A DNA stretch of 61,808 nt, counting the filler, from Stramenopiles sp. TOSAG23-2 (Eukaryota): the NCBI GenBank assembly GCA_900128395.1. It is 6 parts of 6 records of this genome, joined end to end, with 100 filler letters (N's around TTAATTAATTAA, not from the genome) between each part and the next. Parts side by side here need not be neighbours in the genome. Positions count along the whole stretch, not along the records: positions 41,398 to 51,564 come from LT650038.1; 5 more parts are not named here. One strand, written 5' to 3'. Of this stretch, positions 24,915 through 52,350 are shown piece by piece. Under the pieces are notes generated by a model. It worked only from the letters and a program-made list of their open reading frames with translations, was not told the origin of the DNA and searched no databases. Every line of letters starts with the position of its first letter. Position 1 is the first letter of the stretch. A program made the translations under genes and the position numbers.

Positions 24915-25137
24915 GTTTGTGAGTTTAAAAGATTTTATAATATATATTTTTTTTTTATTTTCCATGTCGTACTGTCCAGTCGGCGTACTACCATCCCTGA
25001 TTTTTTTGTATTGTTCTATTGTTGTGCATCATAATGCATTAAATAATAATAATATTACTAATATTTAAATACTCATTATCTACATATCTATACAAAATAC
25101 AATGCAATTTAAAAAACGACCTTTCAACCAGACAACG

Positions 25138-27429
25138 ATGAAGATATTCTTGACAATAATAAGTTTCTTAAGCATTACCATCGTCCATACAGTGATTGCA
25201 TCAACTTTACCTGATGATAAATTATGGTTAAGATACGAAAATATCCAAACAATTTATAACCCTAGTAAATATGAAAATTACAAGAATTTTTTTTCAAGTC
25301 ATAAGAATATTTACTGTGCAACAGATGACAAATATTCGCCTGTGTATTCAGCATGTAAAGAATTATCAAATGGATTGTCCATTTTGTTTGATATAAATAT
25401 GTCAATTATTACCAATAATAATAAAACACCCGCCACTGCTTCAATTGTAATAGAATCTTTAGTTGATGAATATAGTTTATTGAACATTTCAACCAAATTA
25501 TCTGACGAAGAATTTTCAATTTCATATGGCAATCACCATATTGAAGTTGCTGCTGATAAATTATCAATTGTTTCCAATACTGGCCGTGGTGTGTTATACG
25601 GTGTTTTTCACTTATTAAATTTATTGCAACGGGATGCGGATGAGTTGCCAGCCAAAATAATAGATATAAACATTAAAGAACAACCTAAAAGTCGTATTCG
25701 AATTTGGGAGCTATGGGATAACATGGATGGCACTATTGAAAGAGGTTATGGAGGAAGATCCATTTTTCATTGGGAGGAACTACCGAATATTGTAAGACCA
25801 CGTTATGAAGATTATGCTAGATATTTAGCAAGTGTTGGTATTAATTCAATATCACTAACCAATGTTAACTCGTGTTTCACAATGAATCAACAATTATTAA
25901 ATATAACAAATATAAATAAAGCTGCTGTTCTAGGAAAATTATTTGCATCATATGGAATTGCTACATTTTTAACGCCTTGTTTTGATTCCCCTATGTTGGT
26001 AGGTAATTTAAATACATCTGATCCATTTGATCCTCGTGTAATTCAATGGTGGAAAGAAATAGTTATCAAACTTCAAAATGCATTTCAATCATCACGTGTC
26101 ACAACAACAAATAATAAAAAGAATGCTTCTATTATTATGAATAGCGGTTTTATTGGTTTTTTATTCAAAGCTGATTCGGAAGGAATGCCTGGTCCTAGTT
26201 CGTACAATCGAACAGAACCTGAAGGATCATCAATGTTGGCGAATGCAGTAAAAGATATTGGTGGTATTATAATTTGGAGAGCATTTACACATCCAGGAAA
26301 TTTAGGACCTATTAAAATTGGGGATCAACCACTTATGCAATTTAAATATTTCATGGAGTTAGATGGTTTGTGGGATGAAAATGTTGTCCTTCAAATAAAA
26401 AATGGGCCGATGGATTTTCAAACTCATGAACCTGTCCATTCACTTTTTGGAAATTTGAAGAATACCAAAGTAATGATAGAGCTAGGTGTTACACAAGAAT
26501 ATACTGGACAAGCATATCATTTATGTCATTTACCAGTACAATGGGAAAATTATTTAACGTTTAATACTGGGTGTACTTCGGATGGTATTAATAATTACAA
26601 CGACGGTGGAAAGATGTTGTTATTGGCAGATGTATTAACTAAAGGTAAGAACGGATGGGGATTTGCAGGCGTTAGCAATTTTGGGGAAACTGTGATGTGG
26701 ACTGGAAATTTATTATCATCATCAAATTCATTTGGATATGGACGAATGGCTTGGAATCCATATACATCTGCAAAAGATATAACAAAAGAATGGGTTGAAT
26801 TAACGTTTGGAATTGATATGCAAATAACAAAACCAATAGTTAATATGATGATGGATAGTTGGTATATTTATGAGAATTACACATCTCCTTTTGGATTAAG
26901 CGCAATTGATGATAATTGCGCTGATCGTAAACAATGTTTTAAACTACCAAATGGGATGTTGGAAGATCGAGTCGATCATTATTGGTGGGCTGGATGGCTA
27001 TGGGCTGGAGTGGGGAAACCGCCAAATGCTGGCTATGGCGGTGGGTTTAATTTATCTCGTAATAATCGTATGGTTGGAAACAATCGTTCATTGGAATATG
27101 GACAAACATATTGTGGCAAAGAAAATAAAGAAATATTTGGTAATATTAAGCAAACGCCGTTGCGTCTATTATTAACATTTCATCATGTATCCTACGATTA
27201 TGTATTGGATGATGGAAGAACGTTAATGGATAATATAATGTTAGCATTTCAATTAGGACAAGAAAATGCGGAAAATAAAATATTAAATGTATGGAATACG
27301 TTGAAAACAATATTTATAAATAACAATGATCAAGAAAGATGGGAAAATGTTTATAATAAATTAAATATTGGTATTGGTGCAGATACTAAAAATTTTACAA
27401 GATCAGCATTAAATTATTTTACAGATTAG
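25138..27429 (+). CDS. aguA: Secreted alpha-glucuronidase, glycoside hydrolase family 67
   Basis: Signal peptide MKIFLTIISFLSITIVHTVIA; WDNMDGTIERGYGGRSIF, YARYLASVGIN, KADSEGMPGP, IKNGPMDFQ and TQEYTGQ. An alternative ATG lies at 25102. Confidence 0.92.
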   Translation: MKIFLTIISFLSITIVHTVIASTLPDDKLWLRYENIQTIYNPSKYENYKNFFSSHKNIYCATDDKYSPVYSACKELSNGLSILFDINMSIITNNNKTPATASIVIESLVDEYSLLNISTKLSDEEFSISYGNHHIEVAADKLSIVSNTGRGVLYGVFHLLNLLQRDADELPAKIIDINIKEQPKSRIRIWELWDNMDGTIERGYGGRSIFHWEELPNIVRPRYEDYARYLASVGINSISLTNVNSCFTMNQQLLNITNINKAAVLGKLFASYGIATFLTPCFDSPMLVGNLNTSDPFDPRVIQWWKEIVIKLQNAFQSSRVTTTNNKKNASIIMNSGFIGFLFKADSEGMPGPSSYNRTEPEGSSMLANAVKDIGGIIIWRAFTHPGNLGPIKIGDQPLMQFKYFMELDGLWDENVVLQIKNGPMDFQTHEPVHSLFGNLKNTKVMIELGVTQEYTGQAYHLCHLPVQWENYLTFNTGCTSDGINNYNDGGKMLLLADVLTKGKNGWGFAGVSNFGETVMWTGNLLSSSNSFGYGRMAWNPYTSAKDITKEWVELTFGIDMQITKPIVNMMMDSWYIYENYTSPFGLSAIDDNCADRKQCFKLPNGMLEDRVDHYWWAGWLWAGVGKPPNAGYGGGFNLSRNNRMVGNNRSLEYGQTYCGKENKEIFGNIKQTPLRLLLTFHHVSYDYVLDDGRTLMDNIMLAFQLGQENAENKILNVWNTLKTIFINNNDQERWENVYNKLNIGIGADTKNFTRSALNYFTD

Positions 27430-41397: not shown

Positions 41398-41399
41398 AA

Positions 41400-42524
41400 G
41401 GTGTCTCTAACCATCCATTACGGGGCTTGAAAATGGGGCCATTTGAAGGTGGTATTCGTAGTGTTGCAATGATTTCTGGTGGGCATCCACAAGTTTTGAA
41501 ACATGCTGGGACTATTTCCAATTCTATGATGCATGCAGTTGATATCCATACGTTATTGTTGCATATGGGTCAAGGAAATCCGAATTTTGTTCGCCCGGGG
41601 CTGCCATTGAAAAAATTGGATGGAATAAATGGTGAAGCCTTGTGGAAAGCCATAGTAAATGATGCTGTTGCAAATGACGATTCCATAAATAGTTCACCTA
41701 GAAAGGAATTCATTGCATTGCTTGACCCTTTAGGTCAGTATCCGAGTATATTAAAAGCTTCAAATCATGTTTTACTTGGTATATGCTCCGCCATTCGCTC
41801 TAGTAAATGGAAATTAATTGCAGGTAAACCTGGAAGGGATGATTGGTACGGAGATGATCCAAAAAAATGTTTTACCCATTTAGCACATGAAGGTACGTTG
41901 ACGGTGCCACCATTTGAAAATGAATATTGCATGCGTGGCGATTACAGATACGAATGGATCGGGAACAAAGCTGATTTTGTACCAAAAGATACTTGGTTAT
42001 TTGATATTGAAAATGATCCAGAGGAAAAATATGATTTATCTGAGCAATATCCCGATGTTGTAAAACGTTTGAAGGCAAGGTTAGAATTGGAACATAGTGA
42101 AGCGGTTGATCCTTTGCCAGATCGTTGGGCGTCTATGATTGCCATGATGAAAGGTAATTATGCCCTCCCGTCGCCAGGTGGAGGTTATGAAGCTGGATTA
42201 AGCCATTGGATGGAACCAGAACATATTGCAAATGTCAATTTTTTTCGCAAAGCATATGCGTGGGTACGACTCACTGCAGTAGATATAGGGTCAATATTTT
42301 TTGCGCCACAATTGCAAGTGCATAAAAATCCAACATCAGCTGGTCTAGATGAAATGTTGATGTCGAAAATAGAAGTAATGGATATTTCAGATGCATTAAA
42401 ATTAGCATATGGATTGAAGAAGAGTGAAAAATTTACAACTTTGCAACTGCAACGTATTTATCATAATTTGCAATTATTACAAGAGCAATATGGTTTGAGT
42501 GAAAATGTACGTGCAAAAATGTAA
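41400..42524 (+). CDS. Arylsulfatase (ARSB-like, S1 sulfatase), 5'-truncated
   Basis: SNHPLRGLKMGPFEGGIRS, MHAVDIHTLL, LDGIN, AIRSSKWKLI and WLFDIENDPEEKYDLSEQYPDVV. The catalytic N-terminal half is missing at the contig edge. Confidence 0.88.
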   Translation, partial: GVSNHPLRGLKMGPFEGGIRSVAMISGGHPQVLKHAGTISNSMMHAVDIHTLLLHMGQGNPNFVRPGLPLKKLDGINGEALWKAIVNDAVANDDSINSSPRKEFIALLDPLGQYPSILKASNHVLLGICSAIRSSKWKLIAGKPGRDDWYGDDPKKCFTHLAHEGTLTVPPFENEYCMRGDYRYEWIGNKADFVPKDTWLFDIENDPEEKYDLSEQYPDVVKRLKARLELEHSEAVDPLPDRWASMIAMMKGNYALPSPGGGYEAGLSHWMEPEHIANVNFFRKAYAWVRLTAVDIGSIFFAPQLQVHKNPTSAGLDEMLMSKIEVMDISDALKLAYGLKKSEKFTTLQLQRIYHNLQLLQEQYGLSENVRAKM

Positions 42525-43073
42525 AAAATATGTGTACGGGTTGGATAATTTTTTGTTAAAAATGTGCATCATAAGAAGCAATTTTTTTTGTACCGACGGT
42601 AATAATATGTTATAGCCGATATACGATCTTTTATATATTTTAAATATCATCTATGTATCACACATATCAAATCAGTCTGAAGTTAGATTCTGCGTGGATT
42701 GTGCGATTCTCCCGAAAAATCCCAGAAAAAAATTTCTGAAAATTTCACAAATTTTCCTAAGTACAATTAATAGTAGTATTTAAGTAAACTAATTCTCTAT
42801 TAAAATCACGCGGCCTCTAAAAAAGAGATAAGTTTCACTTCACCCTCCTCTAGAAAACGGATAGATATAATTACATATAATCTTCAATACAAAAATATAA
42901 TATAGTCTATATATGAAGAAGAATGAAAAGAAGTAGAAAATACATTATTTCATCTTCAAGTCAAATTACAAATAGAACATTCAACCACTTAATAAATTCT
43001 TTATAATTTAAATAGAACGTAACGTAATCAAAAAAAACATTTATATCAATCCTATTATCCTATTAAAACTAAT

Positions 43074-45320
43074 ATGTGGAAAGCAGGTTTAGCTAATTTT
43101 GATGATATTAAAAATGACCATCAACAAGGTAATGAAAGTGCAAGGTCAACATATAGTTTATCTAGAAGTAGGCGTGATAAATTAACTGCTGTTTTGGAAA
43201 AACAAAATTCAAAGCCTAGAATTCAAACAAAACGTGCTAAATATAGAAATCCACCAATCCAAGAAAAATTTCGTGGTAGCAGGAGTAATAGTAGAAGAAG
43301 TAACAATTCTAGAAGAAGTCGATATAGTGGTAATAATGTGAATAATAATAGTAATAATAGTTATAGCAGAAATAATAAACGTAACAAAGGTAATAATATT
43401 AGTAATAATGGTAGATCGCGTTTAAGGCAAGAAACACATTTACCAATACCTGAGAATAAATCAATAATAGATGAACGAAATACTAATACTGGCATGCAAA
43501 TTATTATCCCTGAGCCTATATTTTTTAATGGCTTAAATTCAATTGAACGGCCACAATGGTCACTAACAGAAACTGAAGATAAGACAACTTTTGGCATATC
43601 CTTTTGGATTCGACCGTCGCCAACTTTAGGAGCAAAAATGACAAATAGGGCAGAGAAATACACAAAAAGACGAATGCTTGGGAACAATATTAACATGCCA
43701 TCTGGATCGACTAGCCCATTCAATGAAAAAGGCATAGATTTATCTGGTAGCGAATGGAGAGTTGTTTGTTGTAGGCGTGGTGCTAGGGAAATTGATTCTA
43801 TTTTACGCATGCAACAATATGGTAATTATGATGAAGAATTACGATATGGTAATAACCGTAAAAAAATTGGAGTTGATCCAGGGGAATTATGTACACCAAT
43901 GTTGCAATTAAGCGCACGAACATGTCAATTGCAATTGTATGTATGGACAAATGAAAATCCTATCAAACCTGCAGGAAGATTAATGACCAATGATAAGTGT
44001 CCATATGGAATATGGACCCATGTGACTATTGCATTACATAAAAATGTTGCAAAAATTTATTTAAATGGAAGGCTTGATGTGGAAGCAAGTTTCAATGATA
44101 ATGTATACTTACCAGAAGCGTCGTTACTGCTTGGTCGTGGTACCTTAGAAAAAAAAAACAAAGATCGAAATAATGATAATAATAGCAGTTATGCTCTATC
44201 TGTTGCATCTAGTCGTATGAGTACGGCTGACTTTGTAAATGGCGGGGGTGATTCTACGTCACGCACATCGAATAATCCATATGACAACGCAGATGATGAT
44301 CCAGAAGGTTTTGTCGGGTTTTTATCAAATGTGGCATTACATGCCAAAAGAATTAGTAGTGGCAATGCACAAGCCATGGTAAAGGATGGTGAAACTCCAC
44401 TTGAGCCAGTGGAACAAGATGAATGGAGTTTGCTGGTCAATGTGAGTAAGCAATTGCAAGATGAGCAAGAAAAGAAAAAGCGAGAACGTTTATTAAAAAT
44501 TAAAGCAGAGCAGAAAAAGGTATTAGATGAACAAGTTGCCTATTTGAAAAAAAAGCGAGCGGAAGATATTAAAGCGGAGCGAGAAGCTGATTTAAGACAT
44601 TTAGCACAATACAATGCGGGAGGGGATCAATTAAAAAAACAAATTGCAAAGGAAAAGTTGATAAAACTAAGAGCTGCAAAGAAAGAAATGGAAGAACAAA
44701 GGCGTTTAGAACGAATCAAACGTGATCATAAAGAACGGGAGGAAATGATACGTGATAAAGAGGATATGGAAATTTTACAAAAACAGATTAAAGAAGCATC
44801 TTTGGCGCAAAAAAACGAGAGACGAAATAAACGGGATACATCTAAGAAAATGATGGCATCATATGCAGTATTGATGGAAGAGAAAAAAATTAAGGAAGAA
44901 CAATTTCGCATGTTGGAAGAGCGTGACAGGGAAATGGCAGAAAGAGATGCAAGAAAGACAATACAATTAGAGACTGCTAGAAAAAAGAAAAAACATTATG
45001 ATCAAGTTCAATATCGTAGAGAATTGGCGGATCAAGTGAAAATGAAAAAAGCACAAAATGCTAGTAAATATCATTTGTCCGAACAAGAACGGACTATAAA
45101 TAGACGCTATTTGCAAGAAATTATTGAAGGGCAAAGGGATGGTAACATTGCAGGGGGTAGCAATTGGGAAGGATCACAATATAGCTTTGGTCCACAGACA
45201 GGCAGATCGCAAATTAGACAATCCGGTCGAAGAGGTTATAATTATGAGAGTCCACAACGAGGTTCTGCTACTTTGAGTAAGCAGAAATTAGATGCATTAA
45301 AACGTATGTTGAATGAATAA
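43074..45320 (+). CDS. Protein with a LamG/concanavalin A-like domain and a long charged coiled-coil C-terminus
   Basis: FGISFWIRP..WTHVTIAL....KIYLNGRLD..LLLG..GFVGFLSNVALH, followed by an E/K/R-rich helix ending in YRRELADQV and LSEQERTINRRYL. Confidence 0.7.
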   Translation: MWKAGLANFDDIKNDHQQGNESARSTYSLSRSRRDKLTAVLEKQNSKPRIQTKRAKYRNPPIQEKFRGSRSNSRRSNNSRRSRYSGNNVNNNSNNSYSRNNKRNKGNNISNNGRSRLRQETHLPIPENKSIIDERNTNTGMQIIIPEPIFFNGLNSIERPQWSLTETEDKTTFGISFWIRPSPTLGAKMTNRAEKYTKRRMLGNNINMPSGSTSPFNEKGIDLSGSEWRVVCCRRGAREIDSILRMQQYGNYDEELRYGNNRKKIGVDPGELCTPMLQLSARTCQLQLYVWTNENPIKPAGRLMTNDKCPYGIWTHVTIALHKNVAKIYLNGRLDVEASFNDNVYLPEASLLLGRGTLEKKNKDRNNDNNSSYALSVASSRMSTADFVNGGGDSTSRTSNNPYDNADDDPEGFVGFLSNVALHAKRISSGNAQAMVKDGETPLEPVEQDEWSLLVNVSKQLQDEQEKKKRERLLKIKAEQKKVLDEQVAYLKKKRAEDIKAEREADLRHLAQYNAGGDQLKKQIAKEKLIKLRAAKKEMEEQRRLERIKRDHKEREEMIRDKEDMEILQKQIKEASLAQKNERRNKRDTSKKMMASYAVLMEEKKIKEEQFRMLEERDREMAERDARKTIQLETARKKKKHYDQVQYRRELADQVKMKKAQNASKYHLSEQERTINRRYLQEIIEGQRDGNIAGGSNWEGSQYSFGPQTGRSQIRQSGRRGYNYESPQRGSATLSKQKLDALKRMLNE

Positions 45321-45707
45321 AAAAATTTTAATTAGCGTATGATGATATGATTATATTTGTGTTATATTTTTATAATTAAACATGCATATAACTATATGTG
45401 ATATATCTGATATCTCGCGTACGTCATATGATATACGAATAAATATAATATCATGTATAATTTAATTAGTGTGCATATAACTCTTATTTTTAAATTTACA
45501 CATGATAATTCCTACTCTCCAGATACGTCGTACGATATCGTATGATATCATAAAAATTGTACGTACGAAGTAAATATGACATGCATGATGACATATCATA
45601 CTAAAAAATATTTTATTATTTCTTATAAAATTTAATACTCCATCATGTACATAATGTACACATGTACGCACTAGCAACTTCTATATTTCAATTTTACAGG
45701 TCATCAT

Positions 45708-46625
45708 TTAATAACGACGTTGTTGATTTGCAGCTAATGGTTGGCGAGCTTGTTGTTGTTGGAATTGTTGTTGTTGACCTTGTTGCTGAGCTCTTACTTT
45801 TTTTTGCTTTTTTTTATTTAATCTGTGTTTTGCAAATCGTATTAATGCATCACGTTGTTTACGATCGATTTCTTTACCATCTAAGTATGACAAGCGATTG
45901 TTACAGTTTATTAACATGGTTTCTCGATATTTGGTAGTTTTGCATACAGGATTGCTTGTAAAAATTGCTTTTTCTAATTCTTTCAATCCACTTAAAACTT
46001 CAACTACTTCACCTGCATTTTTAATTTTATTATTGGAACAGTCTAATAATTGCAATTCCGTCATGGATGAAAATACAATAGGTGAAACAATATTACAACC
46101 GCTTACATTCAAACGAGTTAAATTGCCGCTTAAAGTGTTCAAAGTCGATGGTTCAAATGCTAACTCCATGCCGTTTTGTAGTTTTTGATTACTAACGTTT
46201 AATTCCTCCAACATAATACAACTTTCTAAGCCTGATACAGTTAATATAGCATTACCGTCTAAGAAAAGTTTTCTTAAATTTGTTGCATTTTCCAAACCTG
46301 TAATAGTAGTAATACCATTACGACTTAAATGTAAATTTGTCAATCTTTTACAAGCATTTAATGGCGTCATAGAATTCAGTAAATTATCTTGTAAATATAA
46401 TACTTGTAATGATAAACACATATCCAAGTTTTCAATCTCTTTGATATTTTTATCTTGTAACTTTAAGTGTGTTAAACGCTTTACAAATTCTTCATCAGTC
46501 TCATCTTTTGCTTTTCTCGCTGATGATGTTGAACGTTTTACAAACAATGCTATATTCATTTTATGTATTTTGGATTCTCTACTGGCGCGTCCAGTGAAAT
46601 CATATCTTGGTAAATGTTTTTTCAT
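45708..46625 (-). CDS. PPP1R42: Protein phosphatase 1 regulatory subunit 42 (LRRC67), leucine-rich repeat protein
   Basis: THLKLQDKNIKEIENLDMCLSLQVLYLQDN, ELNVSNQKL..GMELAFEPSTL..L and NPVC..TKYRE..LSYLDGKEI match PPP1R42. Confidence 0.85.
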   Translation of the reverse strand: MKKHLPRYDFTGRASRESKIHKMNIALFVKRSTSSARKAKDETDEEFVKRLTHLKLQDKNIKEIENLDMCLSLQVLYLQDNLLNSMTPLNACKRLTNLHLSRNGITTITGLENATNLRKLFLDGNAILTVSGLESCIMLEELNVSNQKLQNGMELAFEPSTLNTLSGNLTRLNVSGCNIVSPIVFSSMTELQLLDCSNNKIKNAGEVVEVLSGLKELEKAIFTSNPVCKTTKYRETMLINCNNRLSYLDGKEIDRKQRDALIRFAKHRLNKKKQKKVRAQQQGQQQQFQQQQARQPLAANQQRRY

Positions 46626-47169
46626 GTTGTTGTTTCGCTATATGTTGTTATATTTTGGTTTTTCGTTGTTGATTGTTGTTTTGCGTTTGTTCAATAAGTT
46701 TGTATTATATACAGTAATACATAGATGTAACGCGCTTTTGTAACGTCTTCCTGCTAGCTTTTCTGGCTTTCAGGCATTTCTATTCTCGTATTTACTCCTA
46801 TCAAGTGGCTTCAACACTAACAATAAATCGTACTATGGCCATAGATATTAATGTACATACACAATGATACAATGATGAAATGCAATACTAATACATGCAA
46901 AAATAAATGATGATAAAAGACGACGACTTTGAGTCTCCTCGTAATGTAGCAAAAAATCATCATTCATTTCATCATCACTTCATCTTCATCATTTTTTTTT
47001 TAGTTTTAAGTTGTTTACCAGGTTTACCAGTTTACTACAGTATTTATTTATTACAGTATACCTCCTAGTATAATATATACGGAGATGTATATCTATAGAT
47101 ATTACAACTAGAGAGAGAGACACACGATAACAAAAAGGTATATATAAATCCTACAAGATATGTATTAAC

Positions 47170-50100
47170 ATGTTTGCAAAAGAACTTGAAGAAAGAGCAA
47201 AGCGACAGGAGCTTAGGAGAAAAGCATCGGCACAATCCTTGACACCGAAAAAAAATAATAACCACTTATTAAAAAAAAAACAAAAAAATGTAAATAATAA
47301 TCATAATAAAAATATAGAACAAGATTTGGATGAAGACTCTACTGATGTTTTGGATCTATTAAATACAGATGATGAGAAAGATGAGGAAGATAATGGAGAG
47401 GAAGAGGAAGAAGACATGGATGCAGATAGTATATTTTTACGCATGGATGATGATAATCATGGGGATGAAAAAATTGCAGAAGAGAAAGTGAAAGAAAGTA
47501 GTAACTATAATAATAACACTTCGTCAAGTAATAAATCAAACGCCAAGAAAAAATCAGTATATAATAACAATATAGAATCATCAAAGGATGAAACAACATC
47601 TAACTCTCCTGGCTCATTTCAGGATAAATTGCTTCGTCAAGAGCAAGTAGCAGCTATTAATGCACAACAGCGTTCCCGTGCCCGTACCACCACTACAAAA
47701 TATGATCCACAGCAACAGTTAGCTATTGAATTTATTCGTAGAAGAGAACAAGCATGTGCATGGATAAAAAATATTATGAAGCAAAGTTCATCTAGTAGGC
47801 GTGAAAAAGAAGCGCTACCAACATCGGATACATTTGTCTCGGCATTAAAAAATGGTGTTATTTTATGTGAACTGATGCGTGTCATAAATGGTGAACGAGC
47901 TGCTAAAATTAGTATACATAGACAGTATCCTCCCGCTACAAAACAAATGAAAGAGCGTGATAATATTGAAACTTTTTTAGCGCAATGCAAAGATGTAGGT
48001 TTGGATCAAAATAGTCTTTTTGAAACGGATGATTTATATGAATCGTCGGATCACGACGGGGGTGGTAATTTAGGTGCTGTATTATATACTTTAGGTGTAT
48101 TGGCTCGTTTAGCTGAGAAAAATAAATTGATAACATCTGAAAATATGTTTTGGCATGGACATGGGTTTAAAAATAATAATTTTCCAACTCGTAAATATTC
48201 ACAAAGTGAAGTTACAAAAGCGTCGGTAGCATTATTAATGATGGATGGTGATGCTGCTACACCAATTTTGAATTTTACTGATAAAGCTGGTAGAAAAAAT
48301 AGTTTTGATAATAAAAACAAGAACAAAGATACTACTTTAAGTAGTGATAGCAACGGTGGAAATCTTATAGACAATAACAAGAAAATTAGCAATAATAATA
48401 ACAATAATGACAACAATAACAAAAATGAAATAAATGATAACAATAGTAATAATAATAATAACAACAACAATAGTAAAACTAGTAGTAGTAATTATATTGA
48501 TCATGATGACGAGACATGGGGTAGTAGTAGTGATGATAGCGACGATGATGATAACAATGGTTCTATTCGTGGACGTACTACAAGAGGTCAATCTGTAAAT
48601 TTAAAGGAACTTGATGAATCGAAAAAAGATTTTAAAAAAAGATTAGAGCTAGTCAAACGTAAATTAATCGTAACACAATCTGAAATTGAAACAGTTGATG
48701 AGGATGCGGTTTCTGATCGAAAAAGACGCCCCAGTTCAACTTTATCTTCCTTGTCACCAGCTTATTTGCGCAAAAGAACCAGTGATGGATACACATCAGG
48801 TGATGAAGAAGCTGGTCTTCCTGCATGTTATGGCACATTGGAGAATGAGGTGCTAGTAGGGAAAAACGATGAAGCAACATTATTATCTTCGCTTTATCAT
48901 CGTAACAGTATCAGCATCAACAATCAACGCCTGAACAGTAACAGTAATAATAACAAGCGAGAAGTTACAAGTGTACAAAAAGCTAAAGTTGTCATATCTT
49001 GGTTAATTGACCAAGGATTGGAAGAATATGTCACCACATTTCAGAACTCAGGATGGGATGATCCTAAAACCATTGCAACGTTGTTAACTGAACATGAATT
49101 GTTAAGAATGGGCATTAAAAAGCGTGGCCATATTTTGCAGCTTTTGTCAAATATTCCAAAATTACGAAGGCAGCTCCGTATTGGCGACAGAAAATCTTCT
49201 GTTTCTCATGTCGAAATGGCATCATCATCGTCTAATGTTGAATCGACTGTGGAAACATTGCCAGCAGATTTAATGAAAATGTGGGATGGTTTAAAGACAA
49301 CAATAAAATCAACAAATGATGATGACAATACAACCGAAAGTAGTTCAACGGCGAAAAATATCAAGTCTATTGAAAATGTTTTACTTGCTACTGAAAATTT
49401 ATTAATACCAAAAAAAGTTGGCGTTCGACCAATTGTTTTTGATATTGGTTGGCACTCGATTCGCGTTGGTTATGCTGGTGCTGAACGACCTGAGTTAGTC
49501 GTACCATCTGTGAAAGGTGTTGTGAAAGAACTGTTTCGCGATACAACAACTGCAAAGCAAATGAAAAATGGTACCTTGTGTTGTGAAGTTGCTGATGAAT
49601 ATGCAGAAATCTGTAAACTTCGGCCACCATTACGTCGTGGTATAGATGAAATTTCAGACCCAGAGGTCATTGAGTGGGATGACTTGAATGAGATTATTGA
49701 ATATATTTATAGTCGCTTAGGCGTCAAACCTGAAATCCATCCCGTAGTAATTGTTGAAGCATGGCCAAATTGTCCTTTTGAAGATCGTAGTCGGTTGGTG
49801 CAGCTATTTTTTGACACTTATAAAGTTCCATACATATCGTTACTACCCCAAGCACCACTTGTACTTGCTGCGTATGGTTTGTTAAATGGTTTAGTCCTAG
49901 ATATTGGAGAGTCTTTTGCTAGGGCTGTTCCCGTATTTGATGGCAATGCCCTTGCAAATGCCTCTACACGATCACCTGTAGCTGGTCTAGAAGTTACACA
50001 ACAAACGATGAGAACTTTAACATTTGATGGGTTTAAATTCGGCTCTTTTGCTAATGCTGGGCGTACGGATGGGTTCCAAACTGGTAAATCTTGGTTAGAA

Positions 50101-51081
50101 AGGCGTGCTGCAGGCGTTTTAAAAGAAAAATTATGTTACGTCTCTGAAAATGTACGTAAGTCCGTTCCAATGGTAAGAGCCGTTGATGCTAAGTCGTTAC
50201 CAATACATTTGCAACCTACCTTGCAAGTCTCTTCAAATGCAGAATTTGTTAATTGGTCTAAGCATCGTTTTGAAATAACAGAGTGCATGTTCAATCCATC
50301 ATTAATTCGTGGAGATCAATATTATGCCGAAGGCAGTTTGCAAAGCACGGTCATGTCAGCTATATCGCAATTACCTCCAGCGATTCAACGGAGTATGTAT
50401 GCATATGTTTTTGTTACTGGTGGTACTTCCGTTTGTCCAGGGCTTCCTAAACGATTGTACAACGAAATTAAAGATTCCATACATGCATCGTATGATGTGC
50501 GTGTAATTGCACCAGCGGGGAGGGAAAATGCGGCTTGGAGAGGTGGTTCTATATTAGCAGCAAGGCACGATTTCATTGAAAACTTGTGTGTCTCTAAGGA
50601 TGTATATAATACTAGTGGTCTTGGGGCTACGCTGGAACATGTGCTAGAGATGAGTGGATTGTCGTTCGAAGGTACATCATCCTACACCAGTGTAGTCGTA
50701 GATGATGAGCATAAAGCAACATCCAGTTTACAACAACTAATTAAAGCGTCTATTCGTGACAGCAGTAGCGATGCAGAGGCACGTGAAAAATACGATAAAG
50801 TTAAATCGACTATCACTGCTCTTCAATCGATGACTGCAACTTTTTTACAAAATATGAAAGACGTGCAAGATTGCCATAATCAAATTGATAGAGTAAAAGA
50901 CGAATTGGCAAGATCGAAATCGAAATGGGCTGCAGCTGATAGAGTTAGGTGTAAAGCAGCTGCATCCGCGTGTAAGGCGCGTTTAAAAAGAGCTGAGCAA
51001 ACTGCAAATACTTTGCGAAAGGAATTGGCTGATCAGAAAAAAATGGCAGAGTTGTTAAACGATGATAAATCGTTGTTTTAA
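47170..51081 (+). CDS. Multidomain actin-related protein: calponin-homology domain + SAM domain + actin fold + coiled coil
   Basis: CH: LKNGVILCELM..NIETFL..FETDDLYE..AVLYTL. SAM: VISWL..GLEEYVTTF..GWDD..LTEHELLRMGIKKRGH. Actin: IVFDIGWHSIRVGYAG, GLVLDIGE...AVPVFDG, LKEKLCYV, VTGGTS..PGL..RL and AWRGGSILA. Confidence 0.9.
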   Translation: MFAKELEERAKRQELRRKASAQSLTPKKNNNHLLKKKQKNVNNNHNKNIEQDLDEDSTDVLDLLNTDDEKDEEDNGEEEEEDMDADSIFLRMDDDNHGDEKIAEEKVKESSNYNNNTSSSNKSNAKKKSVYNNNIESSKDETTSNSPGSFQDKLLRQEQVAAINAQQRSRARTTTTKYDPQQQLAIEFIRRREQACAWIKNIMKQSSSSRREKEALPTSDTFVSALKNGVILCELMRVINGERAAKISIHRQYPPATKQMKERDNIETFLAQCKDVGLDQNSLFETDDLYESSDHDGGGNLGAVLYTLGVLARLAEKNKLITSENMFWHGHGFKNNNFPTRKYSQSEVTKASVALLMMDGDAATPILNFTDKAGRKNSFDNKNKNKDTTLSSDSNGGNLIDNNKKISNNNNNNDNNNKNEINDNNSNNNNNNNNSKTSSSNYIDHDDETWGSSSDDSDDDDNNGSIRGRTTRGQSVNLKELDESKKDFKKRLELVKRKLIVTQSEIETVDEDAVSDRKRRPSSTLSSLSPAYLRKRTSDGYTSGDEEAGLPACYGTLENEVLVGKNDEATLLSSLYHRNSISINNQRLNSNSNNNKREVTSVQKAKVVISWLIDQGLEEYVTTFQNSGWDDPKTIATLLTEHELLRMGIKKRGHILQLLSNIPKLRRQLRIGDRKSSVSHVEMASSSSNVESTVETLPADLMKMWDGLKTTIKSTNDDDNTTESSSTAKNIKSIENVLLATENLLIPKKVGVRPIVFDIGWHSIRVGYAGAERPELVVPSVKGVVKELFRDTTTAKQMKNGTLCCEVADEYAEICKLRPPLRRGIDEISDPEVIEWDDLNEIIEYIYSRLGVKPEIHPVVIVEAWPNCPFEDRSRLVQLFFDTYKVPYISLLPQAPLVLAAYGLLNGLVLDIGESFARAVPVFDGNALANASTRSPVAGLEVTQQTMRTLTFDGFKFGSFANAGRTDGFQTGKSWLERRAAGVLKEKLCYVSENVRKSVPMVRAVDAKSLPIHLQPTLQVSSNAEFVNWSKHRFEITECMFNPSLIRGDQYYAEGSLQSTVMSAISQLPPAIQRSMYAYVFVTGGTSVCPGLPKRLYNEIKDSIHASYDVRVIAPAGRENAAWRGGSILAARHDFIENLCVSKDVYNTSGLGATLEHVLEMSGLSFEGTSSYTSVVVDDEHKATSSLQQLIKASIRDSSSDAEAREKYDKVKSTITALQSMTATFLQNMKDVQDCHNQIDRVKDELARSKSKWAAADRVRCKAAASACKARLKRAEQTANTLRKELADQKKMAELLNDDKSLF

Positions 51082-51326
51082 GTCACTGAGTATAGCAAAA
51101 CCAAAACAAATGAAATTGAATGTTACGATTCGTGCCTTTGCCGGTCATGAATAACGCCACCATGTCATCCTCCAGCTTGCATGAATACGTTGAATTTAGA
51201 TGTAGCTAAATTTCCATCAGATTATGTGACTAAGTTGCGAAAACATATAAAAAAGTTAAAATAGTGTTCGTATAAAATATTAGGCCTATTTTTTCATCAG
51301 TTTGAATTTGAGTTTATTTTCTTCAC

Positions 51327-51558
51327 TCAAGTACAAAAAATACCTAATCTGACCTATCAAATATATCAAACACTACAAATCTACTGAGTATATAAAAAGT
51401 ATCATATGAAGTACAAATATGATAGGAAATGAAAAACAGAAAACATGGCAGAAAAACACAATTTTCACGAGTAAAATGTTGATAGTGCTGTGTCCATGCT
51501 AATTTTTAAATGCTATTTCCATATATTAAAAAAACTTCATAGGGAGAATTACCATTAC
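51327..51558 (+). repeat. ~230-bp dispersed repeat, copy 2, ending just before the contig end
   Basis: Closely similar to 9098-9331. Confidence 0.9.
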
Positions 51559-51564
51559 TATAGA

Positions 51565-51664
51565 NNNNNNNNNNNNNNNNNNNNNNNNNNNNNNNNNNNN
51601 NNNNNNNNTTAATTAATTAANNNNNNNNNNNNNNNNNNNNNNNNNNNNNNNNNNNNNNNNNNNN
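51565..51664. other. Artificial contig-joining spacer
   Basis: N44-TTAATTAATTAA-N44. Confidence 0.98.
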
Positions 51665-51666
51665 AA

Positions 51667-52350
51667 GCATTTGGATCAGATGATTTTGAACGTGTACGTG
51701 ATATAGCATTGAGTCTAAGCTTTGACGGTAGAAGAAGTATAAATGAGTTGATACTTTCACACTCAGCGAGAAGGTTATATTTATTAATTGAAAGATATAA
51801 AAGAGAGTTTCCACGTGGTACATTTCGCAGGGATGCAATACCAACACCTATCGTATGTGCATGTGAACATGGACGTATGGATGATGTAGAATTATTTATG
51901 AATCTTCATCCTTTTCACAAGTATATTACTAATCGTGACGTGAATGGCTACAGAGATGATATGACATTGAAAGAGATGGTGAGTCAAGTCGGTGCAGATA
52001 GTCGTGGTTGGGAACATACACCTTTAATGACAGCTGCATGGAACGAACATTTCCAAATAGTTAAATATTTAATTGAACAAGGTGAAGCTGATCCTAATAT
52101 TGCAAATAGGCATGGACAGAATGCATTGCATTGGGCAGCATGTTATAACAGAACGACTTCTGAGTTGATTGAATTGTTATTAACTCATATGACTCTTGAA
52201 AGCATTAATAAGAAGCAGGTCGGGGAATTGACTCCCCTGGACTTGGCATATCGTGATAATCGTAGTCCACTTCGCCAAGAGATCATTGCACTTTTACGTT
52301 TAAAAGGTGGAAAAGCAAATTTTCATGATGAAAATGGTATAGATATGTAG
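51667..52350 (+). CDS. Ankyrin-repeat protein, 5'-truncated
   Basis: The frame is open from the contig edge. TPIVCAC, TPLMTAA..HFQIVKYLIEQGEADPN, NALHWAA and TPLDLA. Confidence 0.88.
   Translation, partial: AFGSDDFERVRDIALSLSFDGRRSINELILSHSARRLYLLIERYKREFPRGTFRRDAIPTPIVCACEHGRMDDVELFMNLHPFHKYITNRDVNGYRDDMTLKEMVSQVGADSRGWEHTPLMTAAWNEHFQIVKYLIEQGEADPNIANRHGQNALHWAACYNRTTSELIELLLTHMTLESINKKQVGELTPLDLAYRDNRSPLRQEIIALLRLKGGKANFHDENGIDM

Follow-up and report, generated by a model that had tools for sequence, protein, structure and literature searches.

The CH-SAM-actin-like gene and its setting

The window analysed here, a stretch of 61,808 nucleotides from the Stramenopiles sp. TOSAG23-2 assembly (GCA_900128395.1), consists of six records joined with 100-N filler between them, and its positions 41,398-51,564 come from record LT650038.1. 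In this record, positions 47170..51081 of the + strand form a single open reading frame (ORF) that, with its stop codon included, begins with ATG, has 0 internal stops, and encodes a protein of 1303 amino acids (aa), called P0001 or the window protein below. The original prediction, made from the DNA alone, had read the stretch as one uninterrupted ORF of this length carrying a calponin-homology (CH) domain and a SAM domain, followed by an actin fold that looked complete though divergent. That reading of the ORF holds, and Pfam places the three domains within a few bases of where they had first been located. The features of the gene and its product are given below with the predicted local distance difference test score (pLDDT) where a structure prediction bears on them; clade A denotes the branch of the family that contains the window protein, and A1 is an alignment of orthologues.

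47170..51081, + strand: whole gene (P0001), an intron-free ORF that aligns end to end with the orthologues P0003 and P0004 and is intact in contigs L001 and L002
47170..47709, + strand: N-terminal region (aa 1-180), a basic start and then acidic low-complexity sequence, with motifs DVLDLLN and D.IFLRM
47740..48093, + strand: CH domain (aa 191-308), Pfam PF00307, E 5e-10, 40 bits (cut-off 26)
48196..48285, + strand: post-CH segment (aa 343-372), ...EVTKASVALLMMDGDAATPILNFTDK, nearly invariant in clade A (A1)
48295..48594, + strand: Asn/Asp-rich low-complexity linker (aa 376-475), predicted disordered (pLDDT <50) and poorly conserved
48622..48678, + strand: conserved basic helix (aa 485-503), KDFKKRLELVKRKLIVTQ, with invariant columns in A1; the helix is predicted with low confidence
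48979..49167, + strand: SAM domain (aa 604-666), SAM_1 PF00536, E 1.6e-7, 32 bits (cut-off 23)
49264..49404, + strand: two predicted helices before the actin-like domain (aa 699-745, including ATENLLIPKK), pLDDT 50-70
49423..50619, + strand: actin-like domain (aa 752-1150), Pfam PF00022, E 4.2e-63, 213.8 bits (cut-off 27)
49441..49470, + strand: phosphate-1 loop DIGWHSIRVG (aa 758-767), where actin has DNGSGMCKAG (alignment with Drosophila actin-5C)
49900..49923, + strand: phosphate-2 loop DIGESFAR (aa 911-918), where actin has DSGDGVTH (same alignment)
50776..51057, + strand: C-terminal pair of long helices (aa 1203-1257 and 1260-1296), predicted with pLDDT ~40-68; a candidate coiled coil
50920..50997, + strand: 26-residue motif SKWAAAD(R/K)VRCKAAASACKARLKRAE (aa 1251-1276), placed in the second C-terminal helix

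The single CH domain is of the calponin/transgelin type, as had been proposed, judging from its best solved sequence relatives, and is not a tandem actinin-type CH1/CH2 pair. Its 16 matches in the PDB (best 32 bits) include calponin, transgelin, GAS2, Vav, IQGAP/Rng2, and PIX (ARHGEF6/7), and no calponin-repeat family occurs among the Pfam matches at E up to 1. Single calponin-type CH domains are known to bind F-actin in some proteins and not in others. The SAM stretch is also matched by SAM_2 (E 1.8e-5, 25.3 bits, cut-off 20.5), with Caskin-2 and Caskin-1 as its best PDB matches (45 bits), followed by SHIP2, Eph, and ANKS1; some SAM domains of this kind form polymers or defined heterodimers. 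Besides CH, SAM, and Actin, the Pfam matches at E up to 1 contain only a sub-threshold DUF5740. Structure models covered the protein from the end of the N-terminal region (aa 1-180) onward, and in the full-length AlphaFold model (aa 180-1303; mean pLDDT 58) the CH, SAM, and actin modules are ordered. Block-mean pLDDT is mostly 63-85 in the CH domain, with one 10-residue dip, and 82-86 in the SAM core, and the region from ~aa 356 to 600 is disordered except for the conserved basic helix. The post-CH segment is predicted to be helical with low confidence. At the C terminus, where a coiled coil had been predicted, two long helices do appear in the model, but with scores that leave the coiled coil itself a candidate.

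The fusion of these domains is very probably real: we regard P0001 as a genuine, intron-free gene belonging to a real, conserved CH-SAM-actin-like family of thraustochytrids and unnamed marine relatives. Beyond the window, this 1303-aa ORF recurs in two independent metagenome contigs, being intact in L001 at 99.8% nucleotide identity and intact in L002 at 98% amino-acid identity, which speaks against the chimeric join that the original prediction had named as its own possible undoing. Single-residue indel columns separate P0001 from L002 at three places in the N-terminal region and at one place in the low-complexity linker, and the whole-gene codon differences are 17 synonymous and 19 non-synonymous, too few to be read domain by domain. 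The 90% cluster of the exact protein comprises 29 near-identical entries of various origin, among them several with 1302-1305 aa. The more distant orthologues P0003 (1304 aa) and P0004 (1327 aa), which are 46% identical to P0001 by BLASTP and ~52% by MAFFT over a full-length alignment, contain the same four Pfam families. Chance domain matches are excluded by the E-values and by the conservation of all domains in these orthologues.

Conservation varies along the protein. Compared with P0003 and P0004, identity is 39-40% in the N-terminal region (A1), 64% in the CH domain, 76% in the post-CH segment, 10-15% in the Asn-rich linker, 67-70% around the basic helix (aa 476-505), 44% in the SAM domain, 59-61% in the actin-like domain, and 42-48% in the tail, a pattern that would be expected of one protein selected along its length. 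The post-CH segment is also 51% identical to the divergent clade A member P0186, and a related motif occurs in clade B, the other branch of the family. In the basic helix, F488 and L499 are invariant in 9/9 rows of a second alignment (A2), and ahead of the actin-like domain L744 and P747 are conserved in A1, with P747 invariant across clades A and B. The C-terminal motif is invariant at 25 of its 26 positions between clade A orthologues that are ~50% identical overall; a recognisable version is present in P0186 and it is absent from clade B. Its conservation suggests a candidate partner-binding or packing surface.

An artefact, whether a chimeric assembly or a run-on of separate genes, is extremely improbable. 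Over-extended models do occur in the group, as the 1566-aa gene model P0319 apparently fuses a neighbouring ACBP-ankyrin gene to the C terminus. Against an artefact stand, in addition to the two contigs, the recurrence of the architecture in at least 10 distinct proteins of different origin, one of them encoded by a complete transcript ORF, the conserved motifs held by the linkers, and the start and stop positions, which are conserved among P0001, P0003, P0004, and P0322, with a C-terminal ...LF common to all four. Expression was examined through the 31-mer content of RNA sequencing runs. Twelve RNA runs, mostly poly-A selected seawater metatranscriptomes, contain 25-44% of the gene's sampled 31-mers, and 20 runs from eight studies contain gene 31-mers, which suggests transcription of the gene or of a very close relative. 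That one transcript spans the domain junctions is supported indirectly, by the complete transcript ORF of Mucochytrium (P0190).

The window has a G+C content of 25-37% and tightly packed, long uninterrupted ORFs. Neighbours include an ABC transporter, CCDC22, a signal peptidase, a BRO1-domain protein, a GH67 glycosidase, Sec24, LRR and ankyrin proteins, GST, and a JmjC protein, all of them ordinary cellular eukaryotic genes, and no tRNA genes were found in the window. The window looks like part of a compact, intron-poor protist nuclear genome. About 490 bases 3' of the stop codon, a run of N at ~51568-51660, which also gives X runs in translations, was taken as an assembly gap; it lies just 5' of an ankyrin-repeat ORF at 51709-52350 (+). 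In a related species, P0319 (1566 aa) combines CH-SAM-Actin with an ACBP domain and ankyrin repeats in one gene model. Together with the downstream ankyrin ORF at 51709-52350, this suggests a conserved gene order plus an over-extended gene model, and the ACBP part of the downstream neighbour may lie in or near the N run. The upstream neighbour (43074-45320, +) encodes 748 aa with an Asn/Ser/Arg-rich low-complexity N terminus, a long Lys/Glu-rich C-terminal region, and a weak concanavalin-like (Laminin_G_3) match below the Pfam threshold. The GH67 gene (25102-27429, +) is of the alpha-glucuronidase type, with N-terminal, middle, and C-terminal domains (middle domain 315 bits); GH67 is mainly a bacterial and fungal family.

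Family distribution, fold and phylogenetic position

A HMMER search with aa 180-1303 against 1.84 billion cluster representatives returned 6998 matches with E values of 0.001 or less, 88 of them at or below 1e-30, among which a few long proteins score above the mass of ordinary actins (~30-33% identity, <=163 bits). When the 10 best distant matches were scanned with Pfam, five contained CH, SAM, and Actin (P0033, P0035, P0036, P0037, and P0054), one contained SAM and Actin (P0034), one was an actin-only fragment (P0032), and three were plain actin repeats or fusions. The three domains also occur together in P0196, P0322, and P0319. P0037 and its near-copy P0190 come from the transcriptome of Mucochytrium quahogii, where the ORF of P0190 is marked complete; P0196, found by a search from P0037, is a 1476-aa protein of Hondaea fermentalgiana; and P0322 (1253 aa), which is also represented by the gene model P0319, is a closer relative with 84% identity in the actin domain. 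A search among shorter proteins gave family fragments and then ordinary actins, with no stand-alone version of the actin-like domain.

The architecture was found only in thraustochytrids and in unnamed, mostly metagenomic, records, which agrees with the lineage-specific protein that had been predicted. This distribution suggests a source organism among the stramenopiles related to Labyrinthulomycetes. The order of CH domain, disordered linker, SAM domain, actin-like domain, and helical tail is well supported as a conserved, lineage-specific arrangement, as is the division into clade A, comprising the window protein and uncultured marine relatives, and clade B, which includes the thraustochytrids Mucochytrium quahogii and Hondaea fermentalgiana. 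The two clades are only ~30% identical in the actin domain and keep the same architecture. P0186, a clade A protein of 1169 aa, lacks a Pfam CH match at E up to 0.001, and its actin-like domain is interrupted by very long inserted stretches of low-complexity sequence, so the fold apparently tolerates large inserts at the D-loop/subdomain-2 region. The tails differ between the clades: all five full-length clade B proteins (P0033, P0035, P0036, P0190, and P0196) have an acidic run followed by G-x-(W/Y/F)-AMAI, with one copy ending two residues early, and clade A lacks this acidic-aromatic tail and ends in ...LF. The clade B tail resembles the Arp2/3-binding motifs of the WASP family, which are acidic-aromatic.

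The claim that no protein with this architecture had been described stands for the literature, as full-text searches found no paper on a CH-SAM-actin architecture, and fails for the databases, where such proteins are already present under uninformative names ('Actin' for the Hondaea protein and 'SAM domain-containing protein' for the UniRef entry of Mucochytrium quahogii). The architecture is thus public but undescribed in the literature found. The available main text of a study of the Aurantiochytrium zoospore and vegetative proteome (PMC12221091) does not mention calponin or SAM. In the Protein Atlas the best feature score was 0.75, for generic actin-like clusters, which is below the level of more than a lead.

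The accompanying statement that actins are nearly always single-domain proteins was too strong, as many of the 150 best matches are far longer than an actin domain. Pfam scans of seven long actin proteins found CRAL_TRIO_2 with Actin in two and reverse transcriptase with Actin in one, and some of these long fusions may be gene-model errors. As a separate observation, P0049 and P0077 (also P0067, P0102, and P0149) are proteins of ~1270-1800 aa with a near-canonical C-terminal actin domain (360-416 Pfam bits). An N-terminal divergent CRAL/TRIO domain is present in two of the seven scanned proteins, and P0049 and P0077 form one FastTree clade with other long matches. This long CRAL/TRIO-actin group may be another natural fusion family or a set of gene-model errors.

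The actin fold of the window protein is complete but divergent, as originally read. The Pfam match spans positions 4-401 of the 410-position Actin profile, and an AlphaFold model of aa 740-1167 built with a 37-sequence alignment has a mean pLDDT of 90.5, a predicted template modelling score (pTM) of 0.90, and a complete four-subdomain fold. This model was the query of a structural search, all against representatives, in which several class labels (Arp6, Arp11, and others) come from entry titles or from chain identities that we presume. The matches, by class, were:

Actin: Z 43.3, root-mean-square deviation 1.5 Å over 338 residues, 31% identity (best structural match)
Two chains of trypanosomatid axoneme structures: Z 41.9 and 38.8, 26-27% identity (second and third matches)
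Arp3: Z 37.5, 24% identity
Arp4/BAF53: Z 36.8-37.2
Chain of a NuA4 entry: Z 36.0
Arp7 (Arp7/9 entry): Z 35.6
Chromatin-remodeller chain taken as Arp6: Z 35.4
Dynactin chain taken as Arp11: Z 35.4
Arp5, Arp6, and Arp8 chains: Z 27.7-32.2
Crenactin: Z 31.3

Actin thus scores 43.3, compared with at most 37.5 for Arp3, Arp4, Arp5, Arp6, Arp7, Arp8, Arp9, and the dynactin chain; Arp1 and Arp2 carry no separate entry in this ranking. Among the matches listed, all 46 of the Foldseek hits are actin chains, judged by entry titles, and all 60 of the PDB sequence matches are actins (best 148.9 bits).

For phylogenetic analysis, 247 near-full-length domains were reduced to 136 at 75% identity for FastTree and to 47 hand-picked rows for IQ-TREE. 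The trees exclude P0054, which has a truncated actin domain, and all fragments; they hold labelled actins, Asgard actins, Arp4, and ArpT, and are without Arp1, Arp2, Arp3, Arp5, Arp6, and Arp8. Three sequences picked by loop motifs as Arp1-3 (P0243, P0179, and P0248) proved to be actins or divergent actin-like proteins, with actins as their best solved relatives. In the maximum-likelihood tree (LG+C20+F+G4 with posterior mean site frequencies, PMSF; 47 rows, 377 columns), all nine family members form one clade, with an ultrafast bootstrap of 100 and a Shimodaira-Hasegawa-like approximate likelihood ratio test (SH-aLRT) value of 99, that contains two well-supported sub-clades and attaches to a star-like backbone. 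The actin-like domains are therefore well supported as forming a clade of their own within the actin superfamily that, on these comparisons, does not appear assignable to any Arp class tested, and the position of this clade among actins and Arps apparently cannot be fixed from these trees. Forcing the family and Arp4 into a clade gave an approximately unbiased (AU) test p-value of 0.671 and a log-likelihood 7.83 above that of the quick tree, and a control that forced the family together with Asgard actins gave 0.664 and 10.24; the AU test on Arp4 cannot discriminate because the control constraint passes equally. A FastTree grouping of the family with seven orphan sequences, of which a choanoflagellate (P0116), a basidiomycete (P0166), and a Stygamoeba (P0171) protein are named, disappeared under the mixture model and was taken as long-branch attraction.

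Nucleotide cleft, filament surfaces and possible roles

Both phosphate loops of the window protein are altered in the way first noted, with DIGWHSIRVG and DIGES in place of the actin sequences. Cleft residues are numbered below by what we take to be their actin positions, and the lists of filament-contact and nucleotide-site positions follow the actin literature.

D11, G13, D154, G156, G301, G302: kept in the window protein and in the family
N12: I in the window protein
S14: W in the window protein; W in 9/10 distinct members and A in P0186
G15: H in the window protein; H, D, or N in the family
K18: R in the window protein; K or R in the family
Q137: kept in the window protein and its clade A relatives apart from P0186 (H); A or G in clade B
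D157: E in the window protein and in all of the family
G158: S in the window protein; S in most members and T in P0186
H161: R in the window protein; R in clade A and T in clade B
K213/E214: kept in the window protein and in clade A

Tryptophan at position 14 is present in 24 of 29 family rows, which include many near-duplicates and five alignment gaps at this position, and in 0 of 218 other actin-fold sequences, 206 of which have S or T. Position 157 is E, and position 158 is S or T, in all 29 family rows. Actin uses backbone amides of S14, G15, and G158, together with the serine hydroxyl, to contact the beta- and gamma-phosphates of adenosine triphosphate (ATP), and it places the water for catalysis with Q137 and H161. 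The replacement of small residues by Trp, His, or Ser, along with the loss of Q137 and H161 in clade B, points to ATP handling that may be lost or strongly altered. The altered nucleotide handling suggested from the window sequence alone is thus plausible, the loop changes being conserved across the family. Within the family, the majority-residue frequency at nucleotide-site positions is 0.69, compared with 0.56 for the domain average, and therefore the cleft is constrained, but differently from that of actin.

The filament surfaces were compared with actin in the same way. Identity of the window domain to actin is 28% at the barbed face, 10% at the pointed face, 23% at lateral positions (including the hydrophobic plug), and 30% over the domain, and the D-loop region varies in length and sequence among family members. 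These positions give no apparent sign of conserved co-polymerisation surfaces, the barbed face being about average. The canonical loops of conventional actin (DNGSG..K and DSGDG..H) are absent, and the filament-contact surfaces are not preserved.

The reading that we favour, tentatively, is that the domain is a non-polymerising, catalytically impaired actin-fold binding module in a cytoskeletal scaffold that is tethered by its CH domain and clustered by its SAM domain and tail. The actin fold would be kept as a rigid protein-binding module, acting neither as a polymerising subunit nor as a normal ATPase. Bulky or charged residues (S14W, G15 to H/D/N, G158 to S/T, and D157E) take the place of the small residues that hold the phosphates in actin. 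Of the catalytic pair, Q137 is retained by clade A but not by clade B, and H161 is changed to R or T. The single calponin-type CH domain could tether the protein to F-actin or to another cytoskeletal partner, and the SAM domain and helical tail, if they play the usual roles of such domains, could cluster copies of it. Several actin-shaped modules would thus be offered to partners on one multivalent cytoskeletal scaffold. Support for this proposal comes from the family-wide remodelling of the cleft and from filament-contact positions whose likeness to actin does not exceed that of the whole domain. The trypanosomatid axoneme chains could provide a precedent for monomeric actin-fold subunits, if, as we infer, they are the dynein-bound actin-like proteins.

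Several observations weigh against the binding-module proposal. The window protein keeps D11, G13, D154, G156, K213/E214, and G301-G302, and clade A keeps Q137, so that nucleotide binding or slow hydrolysis is possible. An unusual phosphate-1 loop, DPGHHSLRVG, is also found in Arp4-type proteins (P0286 and P0289, both Actin-like protein 6B), and Arp4 binds ATP. Capping or templating at the barbed face is possible as well, because the 28% identity there is not below the domain average. Not all single calponin-type CH domains bind F-actin, and clustering by the SAM domain and tail is presumed from domain type.

Alternatively, the protein could act on conventional actin as a nucleator, capper, or anchor, as the original prediction had suggested in part, with clustered actin-like domains standing in for the end of a filament or for a seed, in the manner of Arp2 and Arp3. 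The closeness of the fold to actin itself (Z 43.3) fits this role, and the excess of barbed-face over pointed-face identity matches an asymmetry known from Arp2/3. The SAM domain and tail could gather several actin folds, and the WASP-like tails in 5/5 full-length clade B proteins could connect the family to Arp2/3. However, identity to actin at the filament-contact positions does not exceed the domain average, with the barbed face not above 30%; the D-loop region is variable; and the window protein's own clade lacks the acidic-aromatic tail. We therefore consider seed mimicry unlikely, and the same applies to the detailed version in which the protein templates or caps conventional actin while the CH domain holds the product. 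Improbable, too, is an extended form in which the protein would be an actin-organising centre of thraustochytrids and uncultured marine relatives, a clustered, nucleotide-independent pseudo-actin seed or anchor that nucleates or caps actin. We give as little credence to the further suggestion that the clade B tail recruits Arp2/3 and that such a centre could underlie actin structures particular to the lineage, for example the ectoplasmic net. A divergent actin that builds its own type of filament, with CH and SAM domains decorating the polymer, is very unlikely. The complete, confidently predicted fold, the retention in clade A of Q137 and of the K213/E214 adenine contacts, and the varied contacts through which divergent actins and bacterial actin homologues polymerise would allow it, but the phosphate loops are remodelled family-wide, clade B is without Q137 and H161, the pointed face is only 10% identical, the D-loop region is variable, and ~750 residues before and ~150 after the domain would have to be fitted into the filament.

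Two further alternatives place the protein in a known kind of assembly. A monomeric actin-fold light chain for dynein or another flagellar complex is quite unlikely, although the second and third structural matches are trypanosomatid axoneme chains, probably dynein-bound actin-like proteins. In the same direction, the available part of one study reports tArp, a ciliary Arp, in 47/72 SAR species (PMC13589156), and flagellated zoospores are described for thraustochytrids in the available text of another (PMC12221091). The axoneme chains score ~1.4 and 4.5 Z units below actin, so the relationship is not singled out, and among the matches listed in the search of 1.84 billion representatives there is no single-domain relative between the family and ordinary actins (~30% identity). 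A position within a widespread tArp clade would lead one to expect such intermediate relatives among those matches. No CH or SAM extension is mentioned for tArp in the accessible part of PMC13589156, or for the trypanosomatid proteins in that of bioRxiv 10.1101/2025.11.06.687033. The other alternative, a derived Arp4-like protein acting as a scaffold in the nucleus or on chromatin, is highly doubtful. It would account for the phosphate-1 loop likeness (D.G.HS.RVG in P0286 and P0289) and for the 5-residue words that several Arp4 proteins share with the actin-like domain, and the forced clade was not rejected. Yet the Asgard control passes equally, neither free tree joins the family to Arp4, Arp4 falls below actin both in sequence score (100-108 bits vs ~147) and in structure (Z 36.8-37.2 vs 43.3), and the phosphate-2 loop is DIGESFAR where ACTL6B has DSGATHTT.

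Significance and comparison with known systems

Work on actin-fold proteins usually deals with single-domain subunits (actin and Arp1-11). The novelty here lies in a member of the actin superfamily whose conserved architecture is undescribed and whose nucleotide cleft is unusual. One protist lineage keeps an actin fold fused to CH and SAM domains across a deep divergence (~30% identity between clades), with ATP-phosphate loops rebuilt in a manner unseen in the 218 other actin-fold sequences examined. If the domain gave up nucleotide-driven polymerisation, it would be a natural case of an actin fold that serves solely for binding; if it templates actin, it would represent a new type of nucleator in which an actin fold is fused to its own targeting and oligomerisation domains. 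The function is testable and concerns widespread marine heterotrophs, because relatives exist in thraustochytrids and close copies of the gene occur in seawater metatranscriptomes from several studies. One thraustochytrid, Aurantiochytrium limacinum, has been transformed, according to the available portion of a published account.

The window domain shares with conventional actin the four-subdomain fold, and actin is its best match in both structure and PDB sequence (148.9 bits). It keeps D11, G13, Q137, D154, G156, K213/E214, and G301-G302. It differs in its ~30% identity, in the loop substitutions S14W, G15H, D157E, G158S, and H161R, and in being part of a 1303-aa multidomain protein. The CH and SAM domains have modest sequence matches (32 and 45 bits) to calponin, transgelin, IQGAP, Rng2, Vav, and GAS2 and to Caskin, Eph, and ANKS1, respectively, and none of these matched molecules is named as carrying an actin-fold domain.

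Filactin of Dictyostelium resembles the window protein in having an actin-family domain C-terminal to a long multidomain extension. Its extension carries an Ist1-like region and filamin repeats, neither of which Pfam finds in the window protein, and its actin domain is much closer to actin. In this connection, the 90% cluster of P0171, an actin-domain protein of 714 aa from the amoebozoan Stygamoeba regulata, includes a fragment named 'vacuolar protein sorting-associated protein IST1', so that P0171 is possibly a filactin-like Ist1-actin fusion outside Dictyostelium; it is not placed with the CH-SAM-actin-like family in the mixture-model tree.

Arp4/BAF53 (ACTL6A/B) likewise has a divergent fold and, in some lineages (P0286 and P0289), an unusual phosphate-1 loop, but a CH or SAM Pfam domain is present in 0/12 proteins named Arp4 or Actin-like protein 6B. 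The actin folds of Arp2/3 do not self-polymerise and work within a larger assembly, and the greater divergence of the pointed than of the barbed face in the window domain recalls the pattern of these subunits. Arp2 and Arp3 keep canonical S/T-G phosphate loops. Arp3 ranks below actin as a structural match to the window domain (Z 37.5, 24% identity), in a comparison where the trees hold no Arp2 or Arp3 references.

Further parallels in kind may be the trypanosomatid actin-like proteins and the tArp of the SAR supergroup, which, as far as the available parts of these reports go, are also divergent, lineage-restricted, non-filament actin folds. tArp is described there as a lineage-specific Arp that serves as a non-filament subunit of a larger machine (PMC13589156). 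The trypanosomatid actin-like dynein subunits are reported in the accessible text to be ATP-bound (bioRxiv 10.1101/2025.11.06.687033), whereas the phosphate loops of the CH-SAM-actin-like family are remodelled.

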